Positions 7,066 to 37,134 of a stretch of DNA of 44,160 nt are shown in pieces. Numbering within the stretch: position 1 is the stretch's first letter; each line of letters starts with the position of its first letter. The stretch is taken from positions 1 through 44,160 of IMG/VR virus record IMGVR_UViG_3300021256_000026; one strand, 5' to 3'. The translations under genes and the position numbers were made by a program. The notes below the pieces were generated by a model that saw only the letters and a program-made list of their open reading frames with translations, ran no database searches and was not told where the DNA came from. Source of the stretch: a virus.

Positions 7066-7136
7066 AGTGTGAAAATTTTTGCGATAGCCCCTAAGTGCCG
7101 AGGAAATCTCTCGGCATGCGGAGCCTTCTTCCATCG

Positions 7137-13879: not shown

Positions 13880-14758
13880 TTAGTGATGTCCTTTCTTTAC
13901 TTTCAGATGTCCGTGCTTACGATAGAGAGCATTGAGGTCTGCATCACAGAGAATGGTGTCGTACAATTGCTCGTAGGTGTATTCCTTCATCGTTTCCCAT
14001 ATCTGGGGAACGGTCAAGTCGCATTCTATCTTCTTTTGCAACTCATACCGCTGCTCATCGGTGAGGTCTATCACCTGGTAGTCGCCGTCCTTGTATTGGT
14101 TTTGCCGTTCCTGTTCGCGCTGCTTCTCTTGTCGTTCTATCATGGCAGAATACTTGATGCCCCACCGATGCAGCCAGCGTGCAAGCGTGTTGCGGTCGAT
14201 GTTGAAGTTAGCGGCAAGCCTACGTTCAGGCACTCCCCAATTATATTGCTCAATGATTTTCTCTTTCTGTTCGGGTGTGAAGGCGACGCTTTCGGTTGAC
14301 TTGATGCCTGGAGGTCTGCCAAGCATCACACCGAGTTTCATTCTCAGTCGCAAACCTTCCTTCGTTCTTTGCCGTATCATCTGACGCTCGATTTCAGCAG
14401 CCAGTCCGAAGGCGAAAGCAAGCACCTTCGACTGTATGTTGTCGTCGAGAGCGAAGTTGTCTTTGACGGTGTAAATCTTGCACCCCGTCTTCATGCAGAA
14501 GTGCAGAATATCCATCACCATGTAGAGGTCACGTCCCAGTCGGCTAATCTCAGCCGCTATCACGATGTCGTCTTTTTTCAGTTTCTTCAGCAGCGGGCCG
14601 AGGTTACGCTTGTCGGGGTCTTTGCCGCCACTCACCCCCTCGTCGGTGATGTATTCGTCAATCTTCCATTCACGGGCTTCGGCAAACTTCACCACGCCCT
14701 GTTTCTGTGAGTTCACGTCCTGCTCGTCGGACGATACCCGTAAATAACCGTAAATCAT
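13880..14758 (-). CDS. Small serine recombinase (resolvase/invertase family) with a ~90-aa C-terminal extension
   Basis: N-terminal YLRVSSDEQ catalytic motif and ISRLGRD. HTH-like segment RRLAANFNIDRNTLARWL. An extra charged tail follows the HTH. Confidence 0.8.
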   Translation of the reverse strand: MIYGYLRVSSDEQDVNSQKQGVVKFAEAREWKIDEYITDEGVSGGKDPDKRNLGPLLKKLKKDDIVIAAEISRLGRDLYMVMDILHFCMKTGCKIYTVKDNFALDDNIQSKVLAFAFGLAAEIERQMIRQRTKEGLRLRMKLGVMLGRPPGIKSTESVAFTPEQKEKIIEQYNWGVPERRLAANFNIDRNTLARWLHRWGIKYSAMIERQEKQREQERQNQYKDGDYQVIDLTDEQRYELQKKIECDLTVPQIWETMKEYTYEQLYDTILCDADLNALYRKHGHLKVKKGHH

Positions 14759-17782: not shown

Positions 17783-17850
17783 GCACCCGAGTATGGTGAT
17801 TTTTTTGAGTAATAAGAACGTGGTTTGTGTCTTCAAGAAAATTTGAAGAT

Positions 17851-19029
17851 ATGAACAAAAAAAATTTATCTTTGTCAGTTCGGCGCATACCTGTAATAGA
17901 ATGGACTGCGCCGATGTTTCACCAAGGTAAGGAGAACTACGTGGACTTCTACGCCTTTGACCCTGCTGCCGGCAGAATGCGGCGCAAGAAGGTGATGGTT
18001 GACAAGTTCCACACCAAGAAGGCGATGTGCAGTTACGCCAAACAAGTTATTGGCGAACTGACTCAGAAACTGATGCGCGGTTGGAATCCCTGGGTGGAGA
18101 CAAAGAGCGCTGCACAGTTTGTTCCATGGGAGGAGGTGTGCAGCAGATACCACCAGTACGTGGTGAAGTTGAACAACGACCATTCGTTCCGCGACGAGAC
18201 GATGCGCGACTACCTGTCACGTCTGAAGGTTCTTCAGGAGTGGGTGGCCACGTCACACTTCTCTGTGTATTACACCTATCAGTTGGATGAGTTTGTTGTG
18301 CTTCAGTTCCTCGACGAGATGTTCGTTGAGCGCAACTGGTCGCCCCAGACATACAACAACTATGTAGTATGGCTGAAGGGCTTCTGCAGATGGCTTATTG
18401 AGCGTCGGTACATCCACGATGACCCAACTGTAGGCATCAAGAGGGTGCGAAAGACCACGTCGAAGAACCGCACCGTAATTCCGGACCCGGTACTGACTAA
18501 CGTCAGGAAATACCTGGAGGAGCACAACAAGCACTTCCTCCTGGCGTGTCATATCCTCCACTACATGTTCATCCGTCCACATGAGATGTCTCTGCTGAAG
18601 ATAGGCGACTTCCATCTGCAGAAGAAGACGCTGGTGCTGCATGACGACCAGACGAAGAACCGTCAGAGTGCCGTTGTCACCCTGCCCGACCATATAGTGC
18701 GTCTGATGGTGGAACTTGAGGTGTTCCGTCATGCCGACTCCGACTACCTCTTCTCAGATGGTTTTGCACCAGGCAGTAAGTGGCGCGACTCGAAGCAGTT
18801 CCGTGACTACTGGAACAACCATATCCGTAAGGACCTACGCCTTCCTGCGGAATACAAGTTCTACTCTCTGAAGGACACCGGCATCACCAACATGCTGCGC
18901 TCCAACACCGACCCTCTGAGTGTTCGTGACCAGGCACGTCACTCGTCGCTGCTTATAACCAACACGTACACCCCTCTTGACATCAAAGATGCCAATCCGC
19001 TTATACTTGGCTACCGTGGAGTGCTCTGA
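17851..19029 (+). CDS. int: Tyrosine recombinase / phage integrase
   Basis: About 392 aa. The C-terminal catalytic region has RPHEMSLL and ARHSSLLITNTYT (H-x-x-R ... Y). ATG 17851 is preferred over GTG 17827. Confidence 0.8.
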   Translation: MNKKNLSLSVRRIPVIEWTAPMFHQGKENYVDFYAFDPAAGRMRRKKVMVDKFHTKKAMCSYAKQVIGELTQKLMRGWNPWVETKSAAQFVPWEEVCSRYHQYVVKLNNDHSFRDETMRDYLSRLKVLQEWVATSHFSVYYTYQLDEFVVLQFLDEMFVERNWSPQTYNNYVVWLKGFCRWLIERRYIHDDPTVGIKRVRKTTSKNRTVIPDPVLTNVRKYLEEHNKHFLLACHILHYMFIRPHEMSLLKIGDFHLQKKTLVLHDDQTKNRQSAVVTLPDHIVRLMVELEVFRHADSDYLFSDGFAPGSKWRDSKQFRDYWNNHIRKDLRLPAEYKFYSLKDTGITNMLRSNTDPLSVRDQARHSSLLITNTYTPLDIKDANPLILGYRGVL

Positions 19030-19050
19030 AGCCATGCATGACTCTCGCTG

Positions 19051-19126
19051 CTTATGTTACTTTTTGGCACTTTCTTTACCATGATGAAGCGGTTATGTTA
19101 GTTTTTTCCGTTTTCTTACCCTGATG
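19051..19126. repeat. Imperfect tandem repeat (~40-bp period) just downstream of int; candidate arm-type sites
   Basis: cttatgttactttttggcactttctttaccatgatg (19051-19086) compared with ggttatgttagttttttccgttttcttaccctgatg (19091-19126). Confidence 0.5.
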
Positions 19127-19583
19127 TAATGTGAAAGAAAAGACATTTATTTGTCGTTTATCTCGTTTTTTTTACTTGTATGTCATCGTTCTGCGCGGAT
19201 TGCGGTAGATTGTCCCCTGCTGCTTTCCGCCTCTCTTTTTTGCCCGCTGTCGATGTCGTTGACCTTGTTTCATTGTTTCTTCTCCTCGTCGCGGTTGTTG
19301 TGATGGAACATGATGCCGTCATGTTGTTTTTCCGTTTTTGCTGCGTCTGGCGGTTTGATTTTTCCTTAGCAAAGTTAGCACAGCCCACGAACGTCAAGTA
19401 CCGCGTGGCTATTTCTGCAGATTTATTTCCGACACGCTTTCCCCTTTTCAATGAAAAGAGGTATTTCATAAAAAATCTGCGAAATTCCTTGTCTTGTTGT
19501 TTTCCGCTGCATGCAGACAAATTGCACGTAAAAATTACAAAAGCGCCAGTCGCTTCAAGTTAAACTCTTAAAAAACAAGAATC

Positions 19584-19787
19584 ATGACAGCAATCACAAT
19601 CACATCACGTTTCACCACCGCAACAAGGGAAAGAAATACATACTATACAGTAGTAGTCAATGACTTCGACGGCGATAGCAAAGAGTATGAGATAAGCGCT
19701 TCAAGCGAGCAGGAGGCAAGCCGCAAGGCAGAGAACATCGCTCAGAACGAAGGCATCCAAGTAAGTTATATCGAGGTTTACAAATAA
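19584..19787 (+). CDS. Hypothetical small protein (67 aa), moron-like
   Basis: ATG-initiated ORF in a compact plus-strand pair after int. Confidence 0.45.
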   Translation: MTAITITSRFTTATRERNTYYTVVVNDFDGDSKEYEISASSEQEASRKAENIAQNEGIQVSYIEVYK

Positions 19788-19814
19788 AGTCAATCACATT
19801 AAAACATCAAGATT

Positions 19815-20027
19815 ATGAAAACTAAGAGCATCATGGTAGAGAGAGTGAAGTCCAACCGCAGCGAGAGCCGAGTATGGCGAGTTTATATCCCCGGCAGGAA
19901 GAAGTACGAGCAGTACTGCAAGAACGTCAAGAGTGCGTTGCACTACATGTTCCTTGTCAAGAAGCAGACCGGCTTGCCCCTTGACGACAACAGTTACTGC
20001 CGGTTGATGTGGGAGTCGCGCAAGTGA
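19815..20027 (+). CDS. Hypothetical small basic protein (70 aa), moron-like
   Basis: ORF 27 nt after the previous one, followed by the strong hairpin at 20044-20072. Confidence 0.45.
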   Translation: MKTKSIMVERVKSNRSESRVWRVYIPGRKKYEQYCKNVKSALHYMFLVKKQTGLPLDDNSYCRLMWESRK

Positions 20028-20043
20028 CTCCCATTATCATGAG

Positions 20044-20072
20044 CAAGCCCTCGCAATCACTGCGAGGGCTTG
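20044..20072. terminator. 12-bp-stem hairpin between convergent genes (terminator-like, no clear U-run)
   Basis: caagccctcgca-atcac-tgcgagggcttg. Confidence 0.5.
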
Positions 20073-20130
20073 TCGAACAATTACTACTAAACTAAAATTC
20101 AAATACTACTATGAAAAACAAAATTGTGAG

Positions 20131-20499
20131 TTACAAAATTCCAAGTGCTGTGAGTTCTTCTTTCACTTCACCTATGAAGGCATCGTGTTCTTGGACCTCT
20201 TCAATATCTTCGCCCTTGCGTTCCTTCCGGCTCAAGGAAGAGGCGAAAGATGCCACGTCCATCGCGTTGTTCAGCCCGTAAGCAGCCATTTCTGCAGCGT
20301 TGATACACTTTGCTCTTGTTATGGGTATTGGCACTTTCAGTTCCATTGCCCTTGTACCTTCTTCTGTATCTTCATGGAAGATATAGACATTAGCCACCGA
20401 CCCACGTTCGTAGGCCACCACTTTACCGTTTCTCCTTAGGAGTGTTCCCTGTCCGTCTTTGACAGACTCAGGAACCATTACTTTGCTTATAATCATCAT
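20131..20499 (-). CDS. Hypothetical acidic protein (122 aa) overlapping the RT 3' end; possible DGR accessory
   Basis: The ORF overlaps the RT stop by 32 nt. Not Avd-like in composition. Confidence 0.5.
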   Translation of the reverse strand: MMIISKVMVPESVKDGQGTLLRRNGKVVAYERGSVANVYIFHEDTEEGTRAMELKVPIPITRAKCINAAEMAAYGLNNAMDVASFASSLSRKERKGEDIEEVQEHDAFIGEVKEELTALGIL

Positions 20500-21829
20500 C
20501 TATATATGTTAATTGATTGGTGCTCCCCTTAAAGATATACCCGCACTGGTTTTCTATCTCTGCTTCTTCTATGGGCAGTATGTTGGACTTCCCAAATTCC
20601 TTTTCCCATAATTCCATCGACTGAATGAGGCAACTGTAATTCCCGTGAAACTCTCTTGCCTGGATCTTTCCCGTCGGCTGCCCGTCCTTTGTCTCTGGTA
20701 TGCCGATTAGGCACTTTATCCAGTTGGCCACGCCGTCTCCGTTTCTCCTTATCTCATAGTCATAGATTGTGAAGACAGTGTTGTTTTCCGCCAATTCTTT
20801 TACCTCAATCTTCCGCGCATCCATTTTCCTGTCAATGCGCTTTCTTGATGACAGTTCTTGCAATTTCATGTTCCTTTCTATTTTAGTTATCAATCCGAAT
20901 GCGTCCGCGTGCGACAACATGCCGTAGTAACTTGGCCATGCCTTAGAGTCGCTTTTCCGTGCTCTTTTCTCTGTGCTCTTCCTGATGGTAGTATAGCCCT
21001 TATCGTGAGAAGTTATTGTCTTATCCCCGTTTCTATGGAAGACATATCCGCAGAAATCGATGCTCTGCGTCATCGGGAATAACGACACGTCATGTCGTTT
21101 CATTCTTAAACCGAGGTCGTACCACCACCAGTTGCGCAATCTCCATTTCGCTCTCTGCAGTTCTTCTGCAGTTTGCGCCGCAAGGAAATAATTGTCGGCA
21201 TACCTCAGCACCACTGGAGCCATGGAATGCACCATGCAATCCATGTCAAGCATTATGATATGATGCGCCAGCGGTGATGACGGTGTGCCGATAGGAAACT
21301 CTCCATCAGGAGTGAACACCACGTTGACATAGAAGTCAATGAGGCGTTTGTCCTCAATAAGTCGTTTCAGTTTCTTTCGGAATACCTTGACCTTGATATG
21401 CTCATAGCATTTCCTCTGATCGCAAAGCATTCCGTACTTTAGGTCAGTTCTGTCATAGACCAAATGTTTCATCCTTCTCACCACACTTCGTTTTCTCTCC
21501 TTCGTAGTTATTCCGCATCCCTCTTTACAGTTGAGGGCAATTAGCGGGTCATGCTTGTCGTAGATTGGAGTGACATTCAGCACGAAGATTGTCTGCAGTA
21601 CCCTCGTGTACAACGATGGCGAAAGCAATTTTCTCCTTTTCCCGTTGGCGTTCGTTTTTTCGAGACGACGGTACTGCAAATTCTTTACGTAGGAACCATC
21701 GGCAATGTCGTGGAGGAGCATGTCAGCATAAGCATCCTTCTCCTCCATCATGCGCTTGACCTCTGGTTTCCCTCGGTGTCCTCGCGCCGCCTTTTCCATT
21801 GCCTTTAATATTTGTTCTTTCGTAAACAT
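20468..21829 (-). CDS. DGR reverse transcriptase (atypical motifs)
   Basis: RT motifs: RKLLSPSLYTRVLQ (1), MLCDQRKCYEHI (3/A), PIGTPSSPLAHH (4/B), LRYADNYFL (5/C), LGLRMK (6) and IDFCGYVF (7). It lies directly downstream of the TR. Confidence 0.9.
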   Translation of the reverse strand: MFTKEQILKAMEKAARGHRGKPEVKRMMEEKDAYADMLLHDIADGSYVKNLQYRRLEKTNANGKRRKLLSPSLYTRVLQTIFVLNVTPIYDKHDPLIALNCKEGCGITTKERKRSVVRRMKHLVYDRTDLKYGMLCDQRKCYEHIKVKVFRKKLKRLIEDKRLIDFYVNVVFTPDGEFPIGTPSSPLAHHIIMLDMDCMVHSMAPVVLRYADNYFLAAQTAEELQRAKWRLRNWWWYDLGLRMKRHDVSLFPMTQSIDFCGYVFHRNGDKTITSHDKGYTTIRKSTEKRARKSDSKAWPSYYGMLSHADAFGLITKIERNMKLQELSSRKRIDRKMDARKIEVKELAENNTVFTIYDYEIRRNGDGVANWIKCLIGIPETKDGQPTGKIQAREFHGNYSCLIQSMELWEKEFGKSNILPIEEAEIENQCGYIFKGSTNQLTYIDDDYKQSNGS

Positions 21830-21959
21830 TCAAGTGCTTGAGCATGACATCAGCGGTATCTCAACCGCCTTTGCCGGCAGTCTCTTTACATAGAATGCTC
21901 TTACTGCCCTGTCTTATAAATTCGGCACTTCAGGCCACGACACCGACACTCGTCTTTTA

Positions 21960-22070
21960 CACTTCAGCAGACCCAGCATTAGTAGCATTACAATTGGAGG
22001 CCAGGTTATTGCAATTAACCGAGCGCGCCGCATCAATTGCATTAGCAGCATTGCCACGAACACGGAGGCT
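21960..22070 (-). repeat. DGR template repeat (TR)
   Basis: 111 nt aligning to 22224-22334 at an offset of 264 nt. Nine AAY codons in the VR reading frame. Confidence 0.9.
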
Positions 22071-22163
22071 ATGTCGGTACCGTTTTCTCAACCATCCTTT
22101 CCCGTTTCAGTGGGCAGGTCCCTTTGCCTGTCTTGTCGGGAGACGAATGGATTTTAGTTGAGC

Positions 22164-22199
22164 GGTCGACTGCGTCGACCTTTATTGCGACTGCGTCGC
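22164..22199 (-). promoter_or_regulatory. Two GC-rich hairpins downstream of the VR (candidate DGR homing-enhancing structure)
   Basis: ggtcgac-tgc-gtcgacc (22164-22180) and gcgac-tgc-gtcgc (22187-22199). They share the core cgactgcgtcg. Confidence 0.5.
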
Positions 22200-24194
22200 T
22201 GCTGCGCTTTCTACATCGAGAAGCACTTGAGCAGACCCAGCAAGAGTAGCAGTACAAGAGGAGGCCAGGGTAGAGCAATAAACCGAGCGCGCCGCAGCAA
22301 TGGCAGAAGCAGCAGTGCCACGAACACGGAGGCCGGCACGATAGCGATGGTTCGCTGCTGTACCTAAAGACGCCTCCCATGTGTAGCAACATTCTCCTGT
22401 TGTTATGCTTGGCGCCTTCTCCAATTTCCAGACTCCATAAGAAGTCCTTAGACCCACACAATCGCTTTCTGTGAGTTCCGCCTCGCCAAGATGCTCATAG
22501 TCAGACATGAAGTCATAGTCTGCTGTCTGTTCCACCACATGATTGATCCCCTTCCACTTTGTCTGATCACACTCAATGTACTCGCGCACACGATGCGCCG
22601 AGTGCTGGTATGTTGTGACAATCTCCAGTCCACCTCCCATGTACACAAAGTGGTCGCCGCAAAGATTCATTCCCTCTGCTATAGGAGCACGCAAACGACA
22701 CTCTATGTCGAAGGTTACGGCTTGTTTTCCGCTGTTGAAAGCGTGCAGTGTCATTGTACGAGTACGGTACAGACGCGCGTTCATTCTTCCGCTGAGTAGT
22801 GGTGTGGCACCAGTAGGTGTCTGATATGAATACGTCTTTCCATAGAATGTGAAGTCATGACCTGGCGCCACGCCAAGTTCTGCTGCCATAGACAACGCCA
22901 TTTGCGCTTCCATGCAGAACATCTTTGGGGCCTGTCTATTCAGCAAATGTGACATAGAGGTACGGTGTCCGGCATTGTCATAATAGATTGTACTATTACT
23001 AGTCGACCACTGTGTATATGTCCACGCCGAAGCCGTTGACAATTTGTGTCGGACACCGCCATCTGCTAACCAGTTTGTAGCGTTATTGCTCATATCGTTA
23101 GACGATATTCCTGACGAGAACCTCGCTGCCGTATAAAGGTTTTTTGTTCCATAGGCAAGTTCTAGGCAAGTGATAAACGTGTTCCACGGATGCCACCCGC
23201 CCTCTGCCACAGGATACGGCTTTGTCGGGTCTGCGTTGCATGCCCTTGCCTTCTTGGCATTTTTCGCCTGGTTTACCCCGATGCCATCGTCGCCAGGATA
23301 GAGGGCATTATCTCCCTCTACATCGTTATCCAACACTCGGGGATACGTTCCGTCACCGAAGAAAAGTTCACCCGTGCCCGTCAAATCGTTCGTAGGTGCC
23401 AGTCCGTTACATCCCACCTCTCCAGTAGGATAGTCAAAATAAAAACAACGCAGTTGTCCGTTAATTTCCGTACATGGTCCCGCCGCTATTCCTGTGGGAA
23501 CGAGGGGATGCAGCCCCTTCACACCGTCCACCTTGCCATTATCAGCGATGATTCCGTTCAGTTGGCTGCCGTCGGCACCTTCCTCATGATCGAGGAGATA
23601 GACAGTATCCTTGCGTGCTATGAAGATGCTGTATTTTGTTTCGACCGTTTCCCATGGGCGCAGTATGCGCACTTCCTCTCCTTCTGCATTGTAGAGTTTC
23701 TGTGTCATTCCGTACTCATTGTAGAAAGTCTCAGGATTGTATTCTCCGGCATGACAATATAGGTTCTCGTGGTTAGGGTCAAGGTACAGTGTCTGCATGA
23801 GGCACTGTCTCGCCTGTCCCGCTGTTATGCCTATCGTCGGCGCAAACGAACCATCCTCAAAACGAAGAAAGTTGTTTCTCATCAACCAGCCTACTGGACG
23901 TTTCTTCACTTCACCATTCACGGGTGACATGTCAACAAGAACAGGGTACCAGTCAAGAGCAAGAGACACATCGCCATCAACACGCATTGCATCCGGATTC
24001 ATGGTTGCCCATGACTCCCAACGTCCTACGCAATACTTATTTGATGTTGTCGCCTTGCTGGTGATTTGCCTTATCTTGTCGCCGTACTCGGAGAGTTTGG
24101 CGTTCCCAACAGGAACATCGTTCTCCTCGATGGCAGCCTTAATGTCTGCCTTGCTTTCAAGTATTCTTCGGAGTTTTTCTTTAATTGTTGCCAT
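22182..24194 (-). CDS. DGR target protein: tail-fibre / receptor-binding-like, variable C-terminus
   Basis: 670 aa at the distal end of the tail module. The VR encodes residues GLRVRGTAASAIAAARSVYCSTLASSCTATLAGSAQV, ending 13 codons before the stop. Confidence 0.85.
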   Translation of the reverse strand: MATIKEKLRRILESKADIKAAIEENDVPVGNAKLSEYGDKIRQITSKATTSNKYCVGRWESWATMNPDAMRVDGDVSLALDWYPVLVDMSPVNGEVKKRPVGWLMRNNFLRFEDGSFAPTIGITAGQARQCLMQTLYLDPNHENLYCHAGEYNPETFYNEYGMTQKLYNAEGEEVRILRPWETVETKYSIFIARKDTVYLLDHEEGADGSQLNGIIADNGKVDGVKGLHPLVPTGIAAGPCTEINGQLRCFYFDYPTGEVGCNGLAPTNDLTGTGELFFGDGTYPRVLDNDVEGDNALYPGDDGIGVNQAKNAKKARACNADPTKPYPVAEGGWHPWNTFITCLELAYGTKNLYTAARFSSGISSNDMSNNATNWLADGGVRHKLSTASAWTYTQWSTSNSTIYYDNAGHRTSMSHLLNRQAPKMFCMEAQMALSMAAELGVAPGHDFTFYGKTYSYQTPTGATPLLSGRMNARLYRTRTMTLHAFNSGKQAVTFDIECRLRAPIAEGMNLCGDHFVYMGGGLEIVTTYQHSAHRVREYIECDQTKWKGINHVVEQTADYDFMSDYEHLGEAELTESDCVGLRTSYGVWKLEKAPSITTGECCYTWEASLGTAANHRYRAGLRVRGTAASAIAAARSVYCSTLASSCTATLAGSAQVLLDVESAAATQSQ
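22224..22334 (-). repeat. DGR variable repeat (VR)
   Basis: It differs from the TR at 16 of 111 positions. 15 of these are at template adenines (T on the plus strand). Confidence 0.9.
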
Positions 24195-24207
24195 ATATTT
24201 GAGTTTG

Positions 24208-24215
24208 CAAAGGTA
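24208..24215 (-). promoter_or_regulatory. -7 promoter box (TACCTTTG) upstream of the DGR target gene
   Basis: Plus-strand caaaggta, 13 nt upstream of ATG 24194. Confidence 0.45.
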
Positions 24216-24253
24216 AGTATAATTTATTTAATTTAGGGCATCCTAGAAAAATT

Positions 24254-24907
24254 TTAATTATCTCCCTGCTCGTCATCAACGAGTTCTGGATCAGGTGTTG
24301 GCGACCAATTCCCCTCTCCGTTTATCTCGTCGAGAATGTCGGATATATCCCCTATTAGTTCCTCCATTCTCGCGATTTCGTTCGACACTGTATTATGCAT
24401 CTCTACTTTGAGGTTTGCAAAGTTCTCCTGCCTTTGAGCCTCGTTCTGCACGAGCATTCGATTAACGTTCTGAGTGTCAGATACTAGAGTCTCGAGAGTG
24501 GTTTTTAGCGGAGTCAGGTCATTCTTAAGTGTTGTCAACTGCGAGACGAGAGCCTGCATGCCTGGTACAGCATTAGCAATCTCGTCTTCCAGAGTGCTTT
24601 TAAGGTTAGCAATCCAACCGCTCACTGTTGTCTGAAGCGCATCGATGCGTGCGCCAGTGGTGCCGTTTATTTCGCTCTTCAGGGATTGCAGAGCGGAATA
24701 GATGACGAGGTTTTTGACGAAGTTAGTCGATGTAGGGCTGATTTCATCGTCCCCCACGCTGGGTAGGTTGTCTATTTCTTCCAATATCGCCTGAAGTCGG
24801 AGGCCTATGCCTTCGATTACCCCACCTACACGTTCGGCGGTGTTTCCTCCTTCGGTGGTTTCCCCCGCGATTTGCTGTCCAATCTGTATAATCTCTTGTG
24901 GTGTCAT
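24254..24907 (-). CDS. Coiled-coil tail-fibre-associated protein (217 aa)
   Basis: Heptad-like Leu/Glu-rich sequence immediately upstream of the receptor-binding-like gene. Confidence 0.55.
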   Translation of the reverse strand: MTPQEIIQIGQQIAGETTEGGNTAERVGGVIEGIGLRLQAILEEIDNLPSVGDDEISPTSTNFVKNLVIYSALQSLKSEINGTTGARIDALQTTVSGWIANLKSTLEDEIANAVPGMQALVSQLTTLKNDLTPLKTTLETLVSDTQNVNRMLVQNEAQRQENFANLKVEMHNTVSNEIARMEELIGDISDILDEINGEGNWSPTPDPELVDDEQGDN

Positions 24908-24925
24908 AATGTATATATGTTAATG

Positions 24926-26050
24926 TTAATCAAATGGTAATGAGAACGTTCCATCGAAAGTTCCGTGGCCAGCCATTGACGTTGCCGTGTCCACCTCGTA
25001 GATATCTCTCTTGTCGGCGATGCGCCATGTGAGAGTTATTGACTCCGGCGCTGTCTTAGACTTGCGGAACTTAGCGTCGATGTCCGTAATGGTGACAGGC
25101 ACCATCATCCTATAGTCGGCGAACAAGTTCACCTCAGGCGAGCGGTGGACCTCGAGCACTGTTGCCTTTTCCTCTCTTGATATCCACCCGCTGTTAGTCT
25201 TATGCTCCAGCCAGAACTCCGCGTCGAGACGGGAGTATCTCCACTCGCACTGCCCAAAGTCAGCATCCATCTCATGCTCCTCCTCGTCGATGCCTCTGAA
25301 GACGTAAATCTCAGGCAGTCCGAAAGAATTGATGAAAGCAAAAGGCGTCTCGGTGTAGTAGTGGTTATGGTCCACCGTGACATGAATCTGGTCAGTCTGC
25401 TCCCCTGCTGTTCGCAGAATGATATCATACGAATGAACTTTACAATTCTTCCACACCCTCGGAGATATCCTCGACGAGAAGAGCGCATTCATTGATGCGT
25501 CAAGCAACTGGTACCCAGAGCCAGTAGAATAGGAAGCGATATCAATAGTGGCCTCCTGCCTTGAGCCGTCGTATGTATATACCACCCTTGCGCTCACCCG
25601 TCTCGTCACGTTTCCCATCTTTGGCACCCACACCCAGAACTTCTGATTAGGAGTCACACGAGCATGGTCTATCTGCATGGGGAACTCGTCCATGTCGCCT
25701 ACCCCCTCGCGGTAGTAGCCGGAATAATAGTACACCCTGCCGTTGAAACTCTGCGAAGTCTCAGGGAAAGAGAAAGTGATGTCGGCATACGGTTTGCGCA
25801 GCGTTTCGGCTGTTGATATGCCACCCTTCATCTCTTGGCTGAGAAGAATAGCCTGGTTGACAAGTTTGGACAACTCACCAAACCTCACCACCCCATCGAC
25901 GGGAGTATATGTGGCGGTGTTGTCATACCTTGTCACCCCATCGGCATCGTCGATACGAATGCGCACCGCCACGTCATCCGTTGCGGCCACATACACATCG
26001 TCGAGTTCTGATGCCCATAGTGGAGGAGTAAAGTTCTTCAGTTGCGGCAT
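24926..26050 (-). CDS. Hypothetical virion protein (374 aa)
   Basis: ORF 3 nt downstream of the putative portal. Possibly a minor head protein by position. Confidence 0.6.
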   Translation of the reverse strand: MPQLKNFTPPLWASELDDVYVAATDDVAVRIRIDDADGVTRYDNTATYTPVDGVVRFGELSKLVNQAILLSQEMKGGISTAETLRKPYADITFSFPETSQSFNGRVYYYSGYYREGVGDMDEFPMQIDHARVTPNQKFWVWVPKMGNVTRRVSARVVYTYDGSRQEATIDIASYSTGSGYQLLDASMNALFSSRISPRVWKNCKVHSYDIILRTAGEQTDQIHVTVDHNHYYTETPFAFINSFGLPEIYVFRGIDEEEHEMDADFGQCEWRYSRLDAEFWLEHKTNSGWISREEKATVLEVHRSPEVNLFADYRMMVPVTITDIDAKFRKSKTAPESITLTWRIADKRDIYEVDTATSMAGHGTFDGTFSLPFD

Positions 26051-30025: not shown

Positions 30026-32614
30026 TTACTCTTCATCAGGAACCACCTCGGACTGCTGTGGTGGCGCTGCCCATCCCGCTGCCTCGTGTGCATTGTCAGG
30101 CAAGTATCTGTTGGTGTCGTTGTCATCAGTCTTCATGATGGCCATTGAAAAATCCCCCTCAGGCAACTCACTTATTTCCGTTGTACCTCGACTGGTACCC
30201 GCCTCAATGGTCACGTCGCATGTTCGGTACTGCGAACCATCAGAATAGCCAACTTCCACCTCTATCGGATATTCCAGGACCTCTGATGTTCTCACGTCGA
30301 TAGTACCTCCTACGTGTTCGGTGCTTGCGAGGAATGCGACAGAGACATATACCTCCTTAGTCTGCACAGGCACGACTTCGGCGGTGTATGACGTACGCCC
30401 ATCATCCACCGCAGGCGTGATGTCGCCATCGAATGCGAAGTTGTTGTAAGCCATGAGACTGCTGTAGAAGTATGCCGTGCGCGTTCCCTTCTGCATGGTG
30501 AATACCTTACGCATGACAGTCTGTGCGCTTCGAGCGATGAAGGCAAACGACACGTTGCATGGCAGCGACTCTGAAGAGAGAAAGACAATGCGTCCCTCCT
30601 TCTGGTACACCTTAGCCGTTATGGTTATGGTGCGTTGCGGCAGCACCTCTTCGGCGTTGTCAAGCACCTGGTAGAACGTTCCCTCGATGACCTCAGAGAC
30701 GGCGTTTGCCGTTGCACGATGCTTCAGTTCCGCGCAGAAGAAGCGCTGATTTCCGATGATGAAAATCTTCCGCGAGTCGCGCAAGTCAAGCGAGCGGAAC
30801 TTGATGGTAACCGGCTGTGTGAAGTTAATATTGAGGGTGTTCTTGTAGTAGCGGTTATACATTCCCGTCTCTCCGAGAATCTGCATATTGCAGAGAGGTT
30901 CGCCGTAGTCGTGGCGGGCTGTGCGAAGGAAGCAAGGGAAAGCCCAGTAACCGCCGGTCCATTTCCCGCGATAATCTTCGGAACCGTAGAGCGCATACGT
31001 TGTTGCCTCGACTATATTTGACGGCACCACGACAGGGAGATAGATGAAACTTGTCGCGTTGTATTGCCAGTTGCAATTTTTCTTGCCGAGATAAAATCCC
31101 ACAAACAAGCGTTCCTCCATATTGTCCAGTTCAGCGCCCTCGTTGATAAACTCGTTCAGGCCCTTCTCGTTGCTGTCTGTCGATTCCGTGTCCGGAATGT
31201 CTGACTGTCTAGCAAACGGTACTGGCAAGAACACCTTCCTGTCATTGCGGTATGCATCTTGCCACCAAACTATTTCCGTGGGTATTATTTTCAGTTTTAC
31301 CTCGTCGTCGGTTCGCTCGTCATAGTGGCCACTGTATTGATTAACAATACGTATGCACATTGCCGTCGGCTTCTCTCTGTCGTCGATTGCTCTCAGTACA
31401 ATGAGGTTATTGTCAGTATAACCCATATCCCTATACACTATTGAACGATTATATTTTGCCGCGACGGTATTCTTAGACCACCCCCATGTAGGCATCACCC
31501 CATCGTTCATGTGCAGCCAACAGTTCATGAAATGCTCCTTGAAGACAGGGTCTGTGTATTGGCTGCTATGGTCGGGACAATCCTCTATGAGCAATGTCTT
31601 CCACAGTTCTTTGTCGATGGCCCAGTAATTGTATGTCTCCGTCTTGGGGAAGTCGTATGAAACGTTGTGATGAAGCAGTCCCTCTGGCGAGTCCTCGTCG
31701 TACTTGCGTTGGATATCCCCGATGATGTCGCTACTGTCAATAACTTCCTCCCCGGCATTGTCGTAGAAGAAGTTCTGCTGAAGTATCTCAACCTTTTTCT
31801 CTGCCTGGTCAACCACGATGACGCAGCCGGTGAAATTCTCCACCATGGAAAGGAAGTCATCAATGAGCATGTTGGGCATCATCTCGGCGTAGTTCCGCGA
31901 GTGATAACCGTTTATCACCACCAACTTGCTCATTGCCGGGTCTTCGCGGATGAAGTTTGCCTTCATGGTGTAGCCCAGTGCCTGCACCACACGCTCTACG
32001 ATGGCGTAGAGATAAGGCAACGGGTTGAACGTGGTGCCAGTGACAAATGTCGCCTGTTTGTTGGCACCAATACACATCTCGTTGTAGATGACATTGTCCT
32101 CGTAGTTCACGTACATGAATGTGCCAGACAGGAGAAACTCGTTCTTGACGCAGACTGGGGAGCACACGAAGTCGTAGGTACCAGGAGTGAGCGACTGCAT
32201 GGCCACTTCAGGAGTGAGTTCTGGCGTGCTTCCGAGGTCGAGCGAGTGCAGCGTCTGGTCGCCTCCTGAAAGATAGTTGAGTTCGGAGTTGCCGGATACA
32301 ATCTGTATCTTCGCCTTTCGCTCGTCTATCTCCAGCACTATTTCGGTGCCCTTGATGACGATTCCCTTCTCGGAGAAGAGTACAGCAGCCCTTCCTGAAG
32401 GTCTTCGCGGACAGTCGATGCGGTGCATGTCGTGATAGACATAGGCGTTTTGCGGGTCCCCGAGGTCGATGTCTATGTCAAGAGTGTGCTGCCCCTCCTT
32501 GCTGAAGAGAGGATTGCGGTCGTAGAACTCGAACGACGAGCCTGCCGAGAGGTTGACGCTCATCGCGTCTATAAGTAGTGTTAGCATGATGATGATTTTA
32601 GCGACGTGATACAT
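30026..32614 (-). CDS. Large tail protein (distal tail / hub-like by position)
   Basis: About 860 aa immediately downstream of the tape measure gene. The start is ambiguous (32614, 32587 or 32563). Confidence 0.6.
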   Translation of the reverse strand: MYHVAKIIIMLTLLIDAMSVNLSAGSSFEFYDRNPLFSKEGQHTLDIDIDLGDPQNAYVYHDMHRIDCPRRPSGRAAVLFSEKGIVIKGTEIVLEIDERKAKIQIVSGNSELNYLSGGDQTLHSLDLGSTPELTPEVAMQSLTPGTYDFVCSPVCVKNEFLLSGTFMYVNYEDNVIYNEMCIGANKQATFVTGTTFNPLPYLYAIVERVVQALGYTMKANFIREDPAMSKLVVINGYHSRNYAEMMPNMLIDDFLSMVENFTGCVIVVDQAEKKVEILQQNFFYDNAGEEVIDSSDIIGDIQRKYDEDSPEGLLHHNVSYDFPKTETYNYWAIDKELWKTLLIEDCPDHSSQYTDPVFKEHFMNCWLHMNDGVMPTWGWSKNTVAAKYNRSIVYRDMGYTDNNLIVLRAIDDREKPTAMCIRIVNQYSGHYDERTDDEVKLKIIPTEIVWWQDAYRNDRKVFLPVPFARQSDIPDTESTDSNEKGLNEFINEGAELDNMEERLFVGFYLGKKNCNWQYNATSFIYLPVVVPSNIVEATTYALYGSEDYRGKWTGGYWAFPCFLRTARHDYGEPLCNMQILGETGMYNRYYKNTLNINFTQPVTIKFRSLDLRDSRKIFIIGNQRFFCAELKHRATANAVSEVIEGTFYQVLDNAEEVLPQRTITITAKVYQKEGRIVFLSSESLPCNVSFAFIARSAQTVMRKVFTMQKGTRTAYFYSSLMAYNNFAFDGDITPAVDDGRTSYTAEVVPVQTKEVYVSVAFLASTEHVGGTIDVRTSEVLEYPIEVEVGYSDGSQYRTCDVTIEAGTSRGTTEISELPEGDFSMAIMKTDDNDTNRYLPDNAHEAAGWAAPPQQSEVVPDEE

Positions 32615-35600
32615 TGGATTTCATTTTATCGGTGAGTGTCTGCGCTTCAGATATTCCGCGCTTGCCCGTGATATAAGTCTCTGCTATCAGCGGTTTCTCC
32701 AGTCGCTTTGACAGTTGCCGCATCAGATTGACCATCTCTGCAGGCATCTGCGGGACGACTGTTCGCTGGGTGTTGTTGTTTGAAGGTTGAGCGACTGTTG
32801 CATAGTGCTGCGATGGCAGTACCGCTGCCACGTCCTGCGGTGTAAGGTTCTGGACGTTGCCCACGCGCTGCGCATGGTCTATCAGGTTGAGAACTGGAAG
32901 TATGTTAGGGTTGCGAGTAGCGTAGCGGTTGGCTACGAACTCATTGGCGTGGACAATACCTTTTGGCTCGTCCCATGCGCCAGAACCAGTGAAACCTCCT
33001 TTGTCGAATGCCTGGACAATTCCCTTTGCTATCTCATAAGGTGCATGGGCAAGAGCCATTGACGCTGCTGCTCGTATTGGTCCTATGATGGGACCATACT
33101 TCGCTATGCTGTCAGCCATAATAATGGCATCGTCAACGATGAGTTGCTTCTCGAGATAATCAATCATCGAAAGAAGGATTGACTTCAATACGCTCTTCAG
33201 AGCCTCCTTGATGCCGTCCTCTTCGCCCTTCAGGGCAGACGTCAATCCGCGTCCTATTGCATTGGCCACTTCGAGCATACCCTTATAGGCTATGTCACGC
33301 ATGCTCTTCTCATGCTCCATGAAGGCCTCTTTTGCTTTGCGTTTACGATCTTTTTCCTCTTGGGCAGCCTGCTCGTCGAGTTCTCGCTTCTGCTCCATGA
33401 GTTCTATCTGATTTTCAAGAATCTGCTGTTTGATTTGCTCTCTTTGTTCCGGCTCGAGGTTGAGAACTTGTAGTCTCTCTTCGAGTTCCTGCATTTCGAG
33501 TTCACGAAGTTTTTCTGAGTATTCCTCGCGTGATTCCAATTCGCCATCGAGATACTGTTGCGCGGTCTTGTTTCGTTCCTCCTGATACTTTTCGTCAATC
33601 TTCTTCAAGTCATCTTGAACTTGCTTCTTAATCTCCCTCTGCTTCTCAGCCTCTATCTGCTCCGTTGTTTTCTCCTTTGGAGTTCGGTCACTGCGTCCGT
33701 TTTTGCCCGACTTGCCGCCAGACGCGCCACCTCCATGAACAGGTGGAATTGGCGGTGCTGGCGGTGGTACTGGTGCAGCAGATACAGCAAGTCCCTTTGA
33801 TGCTGTTGTTATTTCCTTGTTAAGGTCGTCGATGTCCTTCTGAGTCTCGCTTATTGCCTTGTTTGTTTCTGACAGTTGCTGCCGTGTCTTGGTAAGACGG
33901 TCTTGCGCCTGTTTTGTTGCAATGTCAGTCCCCCTAGATATGACTTGCATACCCTTAGTACCGAGTTTGTTTGCTGTGCTATTAGCGGACCACTGTGCTG
34001 CTGTCAGTGAGAAAGCGTCTTTACTTTCCTGCTCCTGTAATGTTCCGCGCTGCTTCTCAAGATTTCTTTTCTTTCTATAAGCAGCCTCCAAGTCTTCTTG
34101 TGCCGCCTTCAGTTTGATAGACCTCTCTAGATTCTCGAGATACCTCTTCAGTGCTTCGGTATTGTTATTGATAAGTTTGCCTTCTGTCGTCAAATCGGCA
34201 TGATAGCCGGGTACGATTGACTTAAGTTCGTCGAGTTTTGCCTTGCGCAACTCATAGGAGTTGTTGGAATTGTTCACCATCTCGATGAGTGCCTGCACCT
34301 TCGACGACTCCTCTTCGTATTGCTCACTGGCACGTTTGTGAGCCCTTGAAACGGCATCCATCTTCTGGACTTCCTCGTCGTGCTTTGCCGCTGCATCTAC
34401 CAGCAATCCCATCAGTGTTGTTATAGCCGCGATGGCCACTCCCCAGGGATTAGCCTTTATCGCTGTTGCGAGGGCCTTGAAAGACACTATAAGTTTCTCG
34501 TTCCAGAACACCTGAAGTTTTGCAAGAGAAATGGCATAGAGTTGTCTTGCGTTTGATATTGCAAGAGTGGCTGCAAGAGCAATAAGAGTGACACGATGCT
34601 GAGAGACAAAGGTGATAAGTTGAGAAAGTATCTTCACCATTGCGCTGCCGGTGGTGATGCCATAGCGAGCGATAGGCATGAGTTTCTCTCCCAGTTCCAC
34701 GCTGATTTCATGGAACTGCTTCTTAGCCTTTTCGAGTTGTGCCTGGACTGTATTGTTCTGCACGTTGAACTCGTTGATGACCGATGTTCCCTCCTCGTAA
34801 GCCTGATTGGCGAGAGACTGCGCCTCTGCCAGTTGGTCGAGGTGTCCGGCAAGAGCCGAGAGGACACCGACGGCACGTGTGCCATCCATCTTCATCTCGT
34901 CGAACATCTGCGCCATCTCCTGGAAGCCACCGCGCTGCTTCATGGCATTGAGGAAGGTGACAAGCGCCTTGTTGGCATCGGTGCGCAAGAGTTCGGTGAA
35001 CTCGCCAACGTCCTGACCCGCCAACTTGGCGAAGCGGCCAGTGTCCTGCATCATCTTAGTGATGAGTTGCGAGATGACTGTTGCCGATGTTGGTATTTCC
35101 TGCATGTTCTGAGACATGACAGAACCGATACCCATGATTTCCGCCTGTGTGAGTCCTGCCTGCTGTGCCACACCTGCGAGACGTGCAGTGAACTGCACGA
35201 TGGCATCGGCACCTGCAGACGAGTTCTGCGCGAGTTCGTTGACTGCAGAACCTGTGGCGAGCATAGCACCACGGAGTCCACGCTTCTTATCCTCTCCGAA
35301 CATCTGGGCGAGTTTACCGATGTCTCGCACGGCTGTCTCTCCGAGGTCGTCGCCGAGAGCGACACGAATCTTATCGGCTCCATCGACAAACTCCATGATT
35401 GCATCCTTGGAGGTGATGCCCAGACGGCCAGCCTCTCCGGCAAGCGCGTTGAGTTCTTCGCGTGATGTTCGTGTGTCGAGCGCCTTCAGTTCCTCGTTGA
35501 GTTCTTTCACCTGTTCGGCTGTCATTCCGGTGTACTTGCGCACCTGTGCCTCTGCCTCCTCCATGTCGGCGAAGTCCTGGACTGACTTGCGAATTGTCAT

Positions 35601-35921
35601 GGTGAGTCCTGTGATGGAAGCGATGGCTCCACCAATGACACCCATGTAGCGGTTGAAACCGTCGGCTATCTTACCGAAGCGGCTGGAGAGTGTGTTTGTC
35701 TCGTCGGCTACCGCCTTGATGTTGCGTCGGTGTTCGGCGAGTATGCCTTTGAGTTCTCGTATCTTCTTGGCACGTTCCTCATACTCCTTGGTGCCTACAG
35801 TGAGTTTATTCATCTCTGCTGTAAGTTCTCGGATGCGAGATTTTATCGACTTGACGCTGCCATCGATCTCCTGATTGTCGATGTACAGTTTGACTGTTCT
35901 ACTGACGTTTTTACTTGTCAT
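32598..35921 (-). CDS. Tail tape measure protein
   Basis: 1107 aa. Long coiled coils, a central hydrophobic segment and a Gly/Ala-rich core (AGADAIVQFTARLAGVAQQAGLTQAEIMG) typical of tape measure proteins. Confidence 0.85.
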   Translation of the reverse strand: MTSKNVSRTVKLYIDNQEIDGSVKSIKSRIRELTAEMNKLTVGTKEYEERAKKIRELKGILAEHRRNIKAVADETNTLSSRFGKIADGFNRYMGVIGGAIASITGLTMTIRKSVQDFADMEEAEAQVRKYTGMTAEQVKELNEELKALDTRTSREELNALAGEAGRLGITSKDAIMEFVDGADKIRVALGDDLGETAVRDIGKLAQMFGEDKKRGLRGAMLATGSAVNELAQNSSAGADAIVQFTARLAGVAQQAGLTQAEIMGIGSVMSQNMQEIPTSATVISQLITKMMQDTGRFAKLAGQDVGEFTELLRTDANKALVTFLNAMKQRGGFQEMAQMFDEMKMDGTRAVGVLSALAGHLDQLAEAQSLANQAYEEGTSVINEFNVQNNTVQAQLEKAKKQFHEISVELGEKLMPIARYGITTGSAMVKILSQLITFVSQHRVTLIALAATLAISNARQLYAISLAKLQVFWNEKLIVSFKALATAIKANPWGVAIAAITTLMGLLVDAAAKHDEEVQKMDAVSRAHKRASEQYEEESSKVQALIEMVNNSNNSYELRKAKLDELKSIVPGYHADLTTEGKLINNNTEALKRYLENLERSIKLKAAQEDLEAAYRKKRNLEKQRGTLQEQESKDAFSLTAAQWSANSTANKLGTKGMQVISRGTDIATKQAQDRLTKTRQQLSETNKAISETQKDIDDLNKEITTASKGLAVSAAPVPPPAPPIPPVHGGGASGGKSGKNGRSDRTPKEKTTEQIEAEKQREIKKQVQDDLKKIDEKYQEERNKTAQQYLDGELESREEYSEKLRELEMQELEERLQVLNLEPEQREQIKQQILENQIELMEQKRELDEQAAQEEKDRKRKAKEAFMEHEKSMRDIAYKGMLEVANAIGRGLTSALKGEEDGIKEALKSVLKSILLSMIDYLEKQLIVDDAIIMADSIAKYGPIIGPIRAAASMALAHAPYEIAKGIVQAFDKGGFTGSGAWDEPKGIVHANEFVANRYATRNPNILPVLNLIDHAQRVGNVQNLTPQDVAAVLPSQHYATVAQPSNNNTQRTVVPQMPAEMVNLMRQLSKRLEKPLIAETYITGKRGISEAQTLTDKMKSNVSRR

Positions 35922-36468: not shown

Positions 36469-37134
36469 TTACACTGTTTTGGCGTACAGGAGTGCTGCAC
36501 GGACGTAAGTTGCAACTGTTGCGTCGAAGCCCTTATGAGAAGTGAGCCAACGCACATCGTCGATGTTATCTTGGAACTTGCCCTCAACTAGAACTGCAGG
36601 GCAATAAGTGTCACGGCAGATGGCGAGGTTCTGCGGCCACCAGTTCTGCTTTGGCATCGGTCGTCGTACACCTATGCCGTTTTCCTCAGCAGCCTTGGCA
36701 AAACAGTCGGCAAGATGCTTGGACTCCTTGGAAGCATTGAGCGACACGCGTATGCTCCATCGGTTGTTTGGGTTGCCTCCTGGGATATGCCACTTGCCGT
36801 CGCATGGAGGGCATGCGTCGAGGTGTACGGATATGACACAGACGTTGGCGGTGCCGTTGATGCGTGCGACGTTGTTGGCACGTGCAACACGAGTTCTGAG
36901 GGGTGTGTCTGTCTGTTCAGGAGTGAGCAGACGAGCATCATAACCTTGAAGTTGGAGTCGTTTTACTACCTCTGCAGCCACAAGACGGGCATAATAGTAT
37001 TCGCGGAGTCGATAATGCCCATCAGCGCCCTGGAGTACTCCAATGGTGCCTATTGGCTGAGACATGTACTCTACTGGAGGCGAGCATTTGCCTCCTGTGT
37101 TAGAGCCGTGACCGTTGTCTATTAGGAATATCAT
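36469..37134 (-). CDS. N-acetylmuramoyl-L-alanine amidase (Amidase_3-like)
   Basis: Motifs FLIDNGHG and VISVHLDA, typical of zinc amidases. Confidence 0.65.
   Translation of the reverse strand: MIFLIDNGHGSNTGGKCSPPVEYMSQPIGTIGVLQGADGHYRLREYYYARLVAAEVVKRLQLQGYDARLLTPEQTDTPLRTRVARANNVARINGTANVCVISVHLDACPPCDGKWHIPGGNPNNRWSIRVSLNASKESKHLADCFAKAAEENGIGVRRPMPKQNWWPQNLAICRDTYCPAVLVEGKFQDNIDDVRWLTSHKGFDATVATYVRAALLYAKTV

Follow-up and report, generated by a model that had tools for sequence, protein, structure and literature searches.

Evidence for an active diversity-generating retroelement without Avd in a temperate siphovirus-type phage of Prevotellaceae

A reverse transcriptase (RT) lineage with a GxxxSP-type motif has been published as a diversity-generating retroelement (DGR) RT in Epsilon crAss-like phages (Babkin et al. 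2024, Viruses 16:513, PMC11054128). In the accessible text of that article, the receptor-binding protein of crAssE-Sib is modelled as TaqVP-like and fragmented cassettes are reported from Epsilon crAss-like phages; the same text describes no RNA elements or hairpins, offers no evidence of ongoing activity and states that a search for similar phage receptor-binding proteins gave none. In a broader survey, DGRs with only a core of template repeat (TR) and RT and no accessory gene (Architecture A) accounted for 75 of 372 DGRs, Avd was absent from 26% of curated DGRs, one lineage was without avd, around 20% of DGR RTs had C-terminal extensions of up to ~150 aa, and some avd-less lineages were limited to Bacteroides and its relatives (Wu et al. 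2018, NAR 46:11, PMC5758913). Here we analysed positions 1 to 44,160 of the IMG/VR virus record IMGVR_UViG_3300021256_000026 (the whole stretch of 44,160 nt is hereafter called the window), the minus strand of which carries a target gene with a variable repeat (VR), a TR and an RT gene in tandem. We interpret this cassette with high confidence as an active DGR of Architecture A, without Avd, carried on the circular ~44.0-kb genome of a temperate Prevotellaceae phage of siphovirus type.

Adenine-specific differences between the template and variable repeats

Base-by-base comparison of TR and VR (Table 1) gave 16 mismatches over 111 nt at an in-frame offset of 264 nt, and a repeat finder returned a pair of 110 nt spaced 264 nt apart. 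Read in the coding (minus-strand) sense, 15 of the 16 mismatches (nine A>C, five A>T and one A>G) were located at TR adenines, of which there are 23; under a hypergeometric distribution, 15 or more of 16 mismatches would coincide with the 23 adenine positions among 111 with a probability of 5e-12. The sixteenth mismatch was a G>C change located 6 nt from the 3′ end of the homology. In the order of minus-strand transcription, the 670-aa open reading frame (ORF) of the target gene contains VR as its codons 621–657, in frame and ending 13 codons before the stop codon (22184..22182), and is followed by TR, a spacer of 130 nt (21830–21959), the RT gene and a 122-aa ORF. The first-pass annotation of the window, made from the letters alone, had reported this repeat pair with the same coordinates, offset and mismatch count, the change of 15 of the 23 template adenines, a single C/G difference near the 3′ end, a VR end 13 codons before the stop, and a spacer of ~130 nt leading to the RT gene, all of which we reproduced; its nine AAY codons in TR, however, came to eight on counting.

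The mutagenised tract observed in VR spanned 22243–22316, in which 14 of 20 adenines differed between TR and VR. Translated in the VR frame, TR reads SLRVRGNAANAIDAARSVNCNNLASNCNATNAGSAEV, and apart from the eight AAY codons the remaining adenine-containing codons of the tract were ATT, GAT, ACT and a silent GCA. If every in-tract adenine could be replaced by any base, the theoretical repertoire would comprise 4^20 DNA variants and 1.6e11 proteins with no stop codon. No second VR or second target was found on either strand of the window.

Comparison with other assemblies showed where this phage varies. The RT protein was identical on four other public contigs, and TR was identical among the window and contigs L002–L005 (five assemblies). 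L002, a 41.9-kb contig from a different sample, was aligned with the window over 11,902 nt with exactly seven mismatches, all of which were VR sites at TR adenines, and none was found in the remaining 1,902 nt of the target gene. The 90%-identity cluster of the target protein had 43 members, 14 of which were aligned, and a column was regarded as hypervariable when it held three or more residue types. The VR peptides of the 14 members were all different and the proteins were otherwise 90–96% identical, with hypervariable columns at residues 627, 630, 632, 633, 639, 641, 642, 646, 648 and 651 and only two elsewhere in the 670 residues. These ten VR-region columns were exactly the TR codons AAT, AAC, ATT and GAT. 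The confinement of polymorphism to TR-adenine positions, which the first-pass annotation had proposed as a check, was thus borne out by 7 of 7 differences between assemblies and 10 of 12 hypervariable columns. This is direct evidence, as strong as sequence allows short of read-level data, that adenine-directed diversification of the target has been recent.

The ends of the repeat behaved differently from its interior. In the 14 VR variants, no change was seen at the G>C mismatch or at the two adenines that follow it, and the 5′-most A>G mismatch was fixed in all but one of them; both mismatches lie outside the mutagenised tract, and the homing tract is therefore internal to the repeat. By its pattern among the variants, the G/C position behaves like the discriminator between an initiation of mutagenic homing (IMH) site and its TR counterpart (IMH*), and a similar one-base TR/VR difference near the 3′ end was found in most loci of the RT family described below. 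The sequence GGnTCTGCY.AAG was conserved at this IMH-like end across the TRs and VRs of the family.

The 122-aa ORF that overlaps the 3′ end of the RT gene was considered as a DGR accessory gene and rejected: it had no match in Pfam, PHROGs, NCBIfam or PADLOC, was dissimilar to the ORF that follows the crAssE-Sib RT, and was missing from most family loci, only 5 of 25 of which had a co-oriented ORF downstream of RT. A 121–124-aa ORF overlapping the RT stop by ~30 nt was a feature of the close clade (L002 11304–11669; L036–L039) that the wider family does not share, possibly a partner protein specific to the clade or else a phage moron. The designation of the interval 20131–24215 as a complete DGR in the earlier annotation was adequate in that target, VR, TR and RT were all present, but the interval takes in this ORF, which is no conserved part of the cassette. 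In Pfam scans, neither the 58 ORFs of the window nor 81 small ORFs surrounding 25 family loci gave a match to Avd (PF05635).

The reverse transcriptase and its family

The RT gene is intact and its 453-aa product matched RVT_1 at 6.5e-10 and the phage RT family phrog_1423 at 2e-30. Motif 4 of the protein was PIGTPSSP, which departs from the canonical DGR RT signature [I/V/L]GxxxSQ while keeping its leading I/V, and motif C was RYADN. In an alignment of 93 family sequences, the motif-A aspartate and the first motif-C aspartate were invariant; motif 4 was P[IV]GTPxSP in 91 sequences, ended in SS in two and in SQ in none, and motif C was (Y/F)ADD in 60 and (Y/F)ADN in 33 including the window. The YxDD form with both aspartates is thus not found in the window RT, the RYADN of which aligned to RYMDD of bRT, the Bordetella phage BPP-1 enzyme with catalytic aspartates D138, D215 and D216; N213 therefore replaces the equivalent of D216. 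A neighbour-joining tree placed aspartate at the root with at least five switches from D to N and the window inside a 24-member clade in which all sequences had N. Between the window and the related locus L006, the RT gene had 21 synonymous and 3 non-synonymous codon changes, and judging from these changes it is under purifying selection. A search of the searchable literature for YADN or YxDN in RTs found nothing, with only the unrelated E. coli yadN gene surfacing. As for motif 4, the bRT substitution Q187P, which turns SQ into SP, had no effect on how often misincorporation occurs (Handa et al. 2020, PMC7826257), and SQ can accordingly be taken as a diagnostic signature that is not functionally required.

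The AlphaFold2 (AF2) model of the RT had a mean predicted local distance difference test (pLDDT) score of 84. Residues 1 to ~335 of the model superposed on all 328 residues of bRT (8ub7) with a template modelling (TM) score of 0.76 when normalised by the target and with 21% identity, and the model superposed about equally well on the RT of the group II intron GsI-IIC. Residues ~340–431 were modelled as an extra C-terminal domain composed of a beta-sheet plus helix, for which only 86 relatives were found among 1.84e9 representative proteins, every full-length one of them belonging to the same RT family.

We found more than 300 relatives of this RT, 430–475 aa long, in metagenomes and 28 loci in reference genomes, nearly all of Bacteroidales, and scanned the family loci with an adenine-tolerant repeat search. 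In 24 of 31 loci, a TR of 107–118 nt was located 96–256 nt upstream of RT and a VR a further 255–395 nt upstream, with 7–19 adenine mismatches and zero or one other mismatch in each pair, the exception being L024, which had seven non-adenine mismatches, as if decaying. All six further loci from the YADN clade of the window followed the same pattern, with a TR of up to 119 nt and a distance down to 57 nt from the called RT start, giving a combined 30 of 37 loci with an adenine-specific TR/VR pair just upstream of RT. Among the loci without a pair, L007, L026, L030 and L032 were truncated contigs, and L018, L019 and L031 contained a full-length RT (4001–53xx) with neither a TR/VR pair nor the 5′ RNA element described below being detected; the latter three may have degenerated or may have their repeats farther away. 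In 27 loci taken together, changes were counted at 351 of 747 template adenines, compared with 13 changes at non-adenine positions. This family-wide pairing establishes membership of the functional class of DGRs for the whole RT family, whatever the signature of its RTs. The DGR assignment of the first-pass annotation accordingly stands, with mismatches restricted to adenines, variation confined to TR-adenine positions and RT relatives tied to adenine-specific TR/VR pairs.

Several observations were made along with the family scan. L022 and L023 had RVADD in motif C, with Val in place of Tyr/Phe, and IGTPTSS in motif 4, and yet carried adenine-specific TR/VR pairs. Three loci were in metagenome-assembled genomes outside Bacteroidota (L021 in a Fibrobacter bin, L025 in a Pseudoflavonifractor bin and L027 in a Limiplasma bin), which could reflect mis-binning of phage contigs or real spread. 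Six RT homologues of 500–564 aa (P0017, P0020, P0021, P0030, P0031 and P0035) had their ORF called upstream through the spacer and TR, and the resulting N-terminal extensions read as TR peptide, for example VRAGNNANNGNLSARYLNANNSAGNTNSYYCGSA; this annotation artefact is usable as a marker of the GxxxSP DGR type. A difference in misincorporation spectrum between YADD and YADN loci was also considered in the 27 loci (T/C/G of 89/54/31 against 70/63/14, with fewer G and more C in YADN), but it was marginal (chi-square ~7, p ~0.03 by hand) and confounded by selection and relatedness, and was not relied on.

Flanking elements, target protein and carrier phage

Two tandem hairpins with a GCA triloop were located downstream of VR, one inside the last codons of the target gene and one just past its stop (Table 1); no other GCA triloop in the 44-kb window had a stem of at least 5 bp. 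Across 20 family loci, 43 GCA-triloop hairpins were found in the 110 nt after VR against 13 in the other 166 kb, a 250-fold enrichment, and the GCA loop was kept between loci while the stem sequences differed. The canonical DGR target hairpin is a single one with a 7–10-bp stem and a 4-nt GRNA loop, 4–34 bp after VR (PMC3240598); the GxxxSP family departs from this single tetraloop hairpin and therefore represents a tandem GNA-triloop variant. In L010, L012–L014, L017, L022, L023 and L027, a strong intrinsic terminator (GC stem and T-run) followed the GCA hairpins at ~67–95 nt past VR, and in these relatives the TR RNA would therefore have its own promoter. No such terminator was found in the window, so TR may be transcribed here by read-through from the target gene.

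The 5′ side of TR contained a structured RNA element of two helices. All of its eight pairs had compensatory changes, 97% of cells were paired against 28–39% when the partners were slid, and none of 500 shuffles reached the observed value. A covariance model of the element matched the window once (78 bits, E = 2e-18) and also matched each of eight loci outside the training set once, next to TR, with no match elsewhere in the 159 kb searched. Rfam gave no match at E <= 1 over positions 19000–25000, including no intron or retron non-coding RNA (ncRNA).

TR itself is bracketed by two 13-nt strands predicted to form a duplex, and equivalent duplexes of 10–16 bp with unrelated sequences were found in nearly all loci. 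The duplex energy was -23.4 kcal/mol on average for cognate strands and -16.1 kcal/mol for non-cognate ones (p = 2e-8), and the cognate partner in the window ranked best of 22. The spacer continues with the hairpin P1, after which the A-rich strand reads UAUAAGACA; of 21 independent folds, 13 showed the near-invariant A-rich motif as single-stranded, with an unpaired fraction of 0.75 or higher. Hairpins equivalent to the predicted P2 and P3, again with different sequences, recurred in the spacers of the family. A combination of duplex, stem-loop and adenosines called the cPRT Stop was defined by cryo-EM of the Bordetella system and is present in 207 of 278 Avd-containing DGRs (Handa et al., bioRxiv 10.1101/2023.10.23.563531), and the similar architecture found here points to conservation of cis-primed reverse transcription in an Avd-less lineage. 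A primer-template pairing of AGAC in the spacer with GUCU near the TR 3′ end had the appeal that it would explain the non-transfer of the last 12 nt of TR, but was rejected, as it had no covariation support and the pairing was broken in L001, L021 and L033.

The target protein had no match in Pfam, PHROGs or NCBIfam. Its AF2 model (pLDDT 91.5; predicted TM score, pTM, 0.90) was searched with Foldseek against 350,542 PDB chains, in which the top three were the three chains of TaqVP of Thermus aquaticus (5VF4), with weak scores (E = 0.03–0.11; for the best, TM 0.39 and 11% identity) and nothing else meaningful; the window protein is ~290 aa longer than TaqVP, with extra N-terminal and inserted parts. 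Against the predicted viral structures of BFVD, 29 significant matches to phage receptor-binding or tail-fibre proteins were obtained, the best being a ‘Receptor binding complex’ fragment (E = 7e-28), with several crAss-like ‘tail fiber’ and ‘tail collar fiber’ proteins among the others. The protein shared 38% identity over 622 aa with the crAssE-Sib DGR target (E = 2e-124) and its family comprised more than 300 clusters. The gene closes the block that lies downstream of the gene for the tape measure protein. Position and structural matches agree with the earlier description of a tail-fibre-like last gene of the tail module, and together they support a receptor-binding tail protein. A C-type-lectin fold, also anticipated there, was recovered in so far as TaqVP was the top PDB match, but only weakly (E = 0.03); a C-terminal TaqVP-like domain of this fold probably carries VR. 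Tentaclins (PMC10743442) were rejected as the target family since their topology differs, the C-lectin domain being N-terminal. Upstream of the target, the gene at 24254–24907 (minus strand) encodes a 217-aa coiled-coil protein, the N-terminus of which weakly matched a tail-fibre PHROG, and a collagen-repeat protein was found in the same position in related phages (L034–L039), pointing to a modular shaft of the fibre as the docking site of the variable protein.

The last 127 nt of the window (44034–44160) repeat its first 127 nt (1–127), an overlap of k-mer length that is typical of circular assembly and identifies a complete circular genome of ~44.0 kb (44,033 bp), with a GC content of 49%. 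A copy 95% identical in DNA was found in L006 (OMXS01000015.1), a 143-kb scaffold of the uncultured Prevotellaceae genome RUG064; together with the integrase gene near the DGR, this copy points to a temperate, siphovirus-type phage with a Prevotellaceae host. A megablast search of the cassette against 50,697 phage records gave no DNA-level match.

Table 1. Positions in the window of the DGR components, the flanking elements and other phage genes
Feature	Position	Strand	Basis or remark
Target gene, 670-aa receptor-binding/tail-fibre protein	22182..24194	-	ORF call, structure matches, position
VR	22224..22334	-	15/16 mismatches at TR adenines
IMH-like VR 3′ end, GCTGGGTCTGCTCAAGTG	22224..22241	-	One fixed non-adenine difference, VR C / TR G
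GCA-triloop hairpin 1, GCGAC-GCA-GTCGC, inside last target codons	22187..22199	-	Starts 24 nt after VR, 5-bp stem
GCA-triloop hairpin 2, GGTCGAC-GCA-GTCGACC, just past stop	22164..22180	-	Starts 43 nt after VR, 7-bp stem
Structured RNA element on TR 5′ side, two helices, 8 pairs	22066..22159	-	RNAalifold alignment, covariance model
Upstream strand of TR-bracketing duplex, ACGGUACCGACAU	22071..22083	-	13 nt just before TR
TR	21960..22070	-	23 adenines; identical in all five assemblies of the phage examined
Downstream strand of TR-bracketing duplex, GUGUCGGUGUCGU	21937..21949	-	Starts 11 nt after TR
Spacer hairpin P1, GUGGCC-UGAAG-UGCCGA	21922..21938	-	Directly after duplex; 5/5 pairs with compensatory changes, 21 loci
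Near-invariant A-rich single-stranded motif, UAUAAGACAG	21909..21918	-	Invariant A..A.AAGAC columns
Spacer hairpins P2 (21876–21908) and P3 (~21846–21875)	21846..21908	-	Predicted, minimum free energy fold
DGR reverse transcriptase, 453 aa	20468..21829	-	RVT_1, phrog_1423, family alignments, AF2 model
122-aa ORF overlapping RT 3′ end	20131..20499	-	Probably no DGR component
Tyrosine integrase, near DGR	17827–19029	+	
Clp-type head protease	5947–7134		
Serine recombinase/DNA invertase	13880–14758	-	Resolvase domain 8.5e-32, phrog_125 ‘DNA invertase’
Tape measure protein	32598–35921		
Amidase endolysin	36469–37134		
RadC-like JAB-domain protein, genome end	43299–44036	+	5e-37

Interpretation and comparison with known systems

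We propose the following course for diversification of the target gene by analogy with the DGR of Bordetella phage BPP-1. The minus strand would yield an RNA that runs from the 5′ element through TR and the spacer and is bound by the RT, and the 13-bp duplex, the P1 stem-loop and the A-rich motif would form a cPRT-Stop-like scaffold that positions the RNA for cis-primed reverse transcription. The enzyme would copy TR faithfully except opposite adenines and terminate at the bracketing duplex, and the cDNA would then replace VR by homing directed by the IMH-like 3′ end and the two GCA-triloop hairpins downstream. Through the eight AAY codons and the ATT, GAT and ACT codons, up to 1.6e11 variants of the ligand-binding surface could be generated, presumably tracking changes in the host receptor. 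Since diversification has been recent, the YADN RT is most likely catalytically competent. On the sequence comparisons, the YADN enzyme itself is likely to be the active one, considering its conservation within a clade, its recurrence, purifying selection, the locus-specific RNA partners and the fact that the phage has only one RT. In Ty1 RT and poliovirus 3Dpol, mutants with the second Asp changed to Asn keep polymerase activity, in the case of 3Dpol with a changed metal requirement, and mononegavirus polymerases naturally have GDN.

A number of points weigh against reading the locus as an active DGR. Variation was seen between assemblies, and no promoter was identified for the TR RNA. Neither Avd nor another accessory gene was found, although very divergent Avd homologues could escape Pfam. 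The canonical SQ (GxxxSQ) signature is absent from the RT, and to our knowledge all characterised RTs carry two motif-C aspartates, so that YADN could by analogy reduce or abolish activity. The lectin assignment depends on the weak Foldseek match together with homology to a published model, and we infer cDNA synthesis, the priming site, homing and the roles of the RNA and DNA elements by analogy. Also in sequence score the RT was closer to a group II intron RT (5.5e-6) than to bRT (0.018) in the PDB. This last point bears on an assignment of the RT to another class of retroelement or defence system (group II intron, retron, defence-associated RT (DRT) or abortive infection (Abi)) with a coincidental repeat nearby, for which it also counts that the best NCBIfam match was the group II intron maturase model TIGR04416, that a GenBank relative is annotated as ‘retron-type’ and that motif 4 ends in SP like those of group II intron RTs. 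Such an assignment has a negligible probability, however, given that the scores were far under the curated cut-offs (51.9 bits against 300 for TIGR04416 and 33.5 against 235 for the retron St85 model), that PADLOC gave only generic or weak RT matches, that the Rfam search gave no intron or retron ncRNA, that motif 4 starts with I or V and not Q, and that the RT was tied to an adenine-specific TR/VR pair in 30 of 37 loci.

Two other explanations accept the cassette as a DGR and differ in the state of its RT. If the element were a relic, the TR/VR differences would record past activity only, and degenerate-looking loci do occur in the family (the RT-only L018, L019 and L031, and L024 with its seven non-adenine mismatches), as do the fragmented cassettes reported from Epsilon crAss-like phages; a relic would nevertheless hardly leave two assemblies that are identical over 11.9 kb except for seven adenine-templated VR changes, different VR peptides in 14 of 14 cluster members, and a cassette with all parts intact in which the sole non-adenine mismatch is the fixed one on the IMH side, and we regard this explanation as very improbable. 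It is somewhat easier to imagine, if still unlikely, that the cassette diversifies with a YADN RT that is dead or severely impaired, the cDNA being made in trans by a YADD-type DGR RT of a co-resident prophage or the host, because the aspartate matching bRT D216, one of the three named catalytic aspartates, is Asn here and related YADD elements are common in Bacteroidales genomes, which makes co-residence conceivable. Against this, YADN was conserved throughout the 24-member clade and had at least five independent origins, nine distinct YADN elements carried adenine-specific TR/VR pairs along with full-length RTs and intact flanking RNA elements, the excess of synonymous over non-synonymous changes is unexpected for a dead gene, and the 44-kb phage had only one RT gene. 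The locus specificity of the TR-flanking duplex also argues for cognate recognition between RT and RNA and thus against supply in trans.

Beyond the active Avd-less DGR in this phage, we tentatively consider a wider view, possible rather than probable, in which the RT family is a distinct Avd-independent DGR lineage missed by standard detectors, the C-terminal domain (~90 aa) and the 5′ RNA element take the RNA-positioning role of Avd, and the third catalytic Asp is dispensable. If that Asp were dispensable, a weakened metal site would be linked to the low-efficiency adenine-mutagenic chemistry of DGR RTs. In any case YADN raises the testable question of whether the second motif-C aspartate is needed and whether its loss tunes metal use, efficiency or fidelity.

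The cassette is not categorically new: it represents a known kind of DGR and a lineage that was published in 2024, with a phage type and a host that are new for it; our principal claim adds a well-documented active example and no new mechanism. What sets it apart, with no mention in the literature consulted, is the clade-conserved YADN in diversifying elements, and the GCA-triloop array, the 5′ RNA element and the cPRT-Stop-like scaffold without Avd. The GxxxSP RT lineage, reported only in Epsilon crAss-like phages and invisible to myDGR, is widespread, with more than 300 RT clusters in phages and prophages, mostly of Bacteroidales, from rumen, gut and poultry, and with a target family common to each; DGR censuses based on the SQ signature therefore undercount. 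The cis elements broaden the cPRT-Stop model, based on DGRs with Avd, to a lineage that lacks it, and offer defined parts for the engineering of compact two-component (RT and RNA) diversifiers.

In comparison with known systems, the SP motif, the missing Avd and the RT extension are all within the variation already described (PMC5758913, PMC7826257). The survey of Wu et al. was built with SQ-type signatures, so GxxxSP RTs may be absent from it. Relative to BPP-1 (mtd-avd-TR-brt), the window shares adenine-specific transfer from TR to VR in the C-terminus of a receptor-binding protein, a putative discrimination on the IMH side, a GC-rich hairpin after VR, a TR flanked by upstream and downstream RNA (essential in BPP-1) with a duplex, a stem-loop and adenosines, and the RT fold. 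Unlike BPP-1, it has no Avd, its RT exceeds bRT by 125 aa and carries a private C-terminal domain, SP replaces SQ and YADN replaces YMDD, a tandem pair of GCA-triloop hairpins with stems of 5–7 bp replaces the one hairpin with an 8-bp stem and a GAAA tetraloop, the IMH-like end differs from its TR counterpart by one base and not several, and the target is probably TaqVP-like and not Mtd-like.

The closest phage record was that of crAssE-Sib (Epsilonunovirus, OR575929.1), for which the depositors annotated VR, IMH, TR and IMH* in an arrangement matching that of the window. Both cassettes follow the order target/VR, TR and RT, and Avd is neither annotated in the crAssE-Sib record nor mentioned in the accessible text of PMC11054128. 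The two RTs were 49.8% identical over 97% of their length with a common PIGTPxSP motif and C-terminal domain, and the GCA-triloop hairpins after VR and the TR-flanking RNA motifs were common to both. They differed in motif C, which is YADD in crAssE-Sib and YADN in the window, and in the carrier, a 151-kb crAss-like virus in the one case and a 44-kb integrase-bearing siphovirus-type Prevotellaceae phage in the other.

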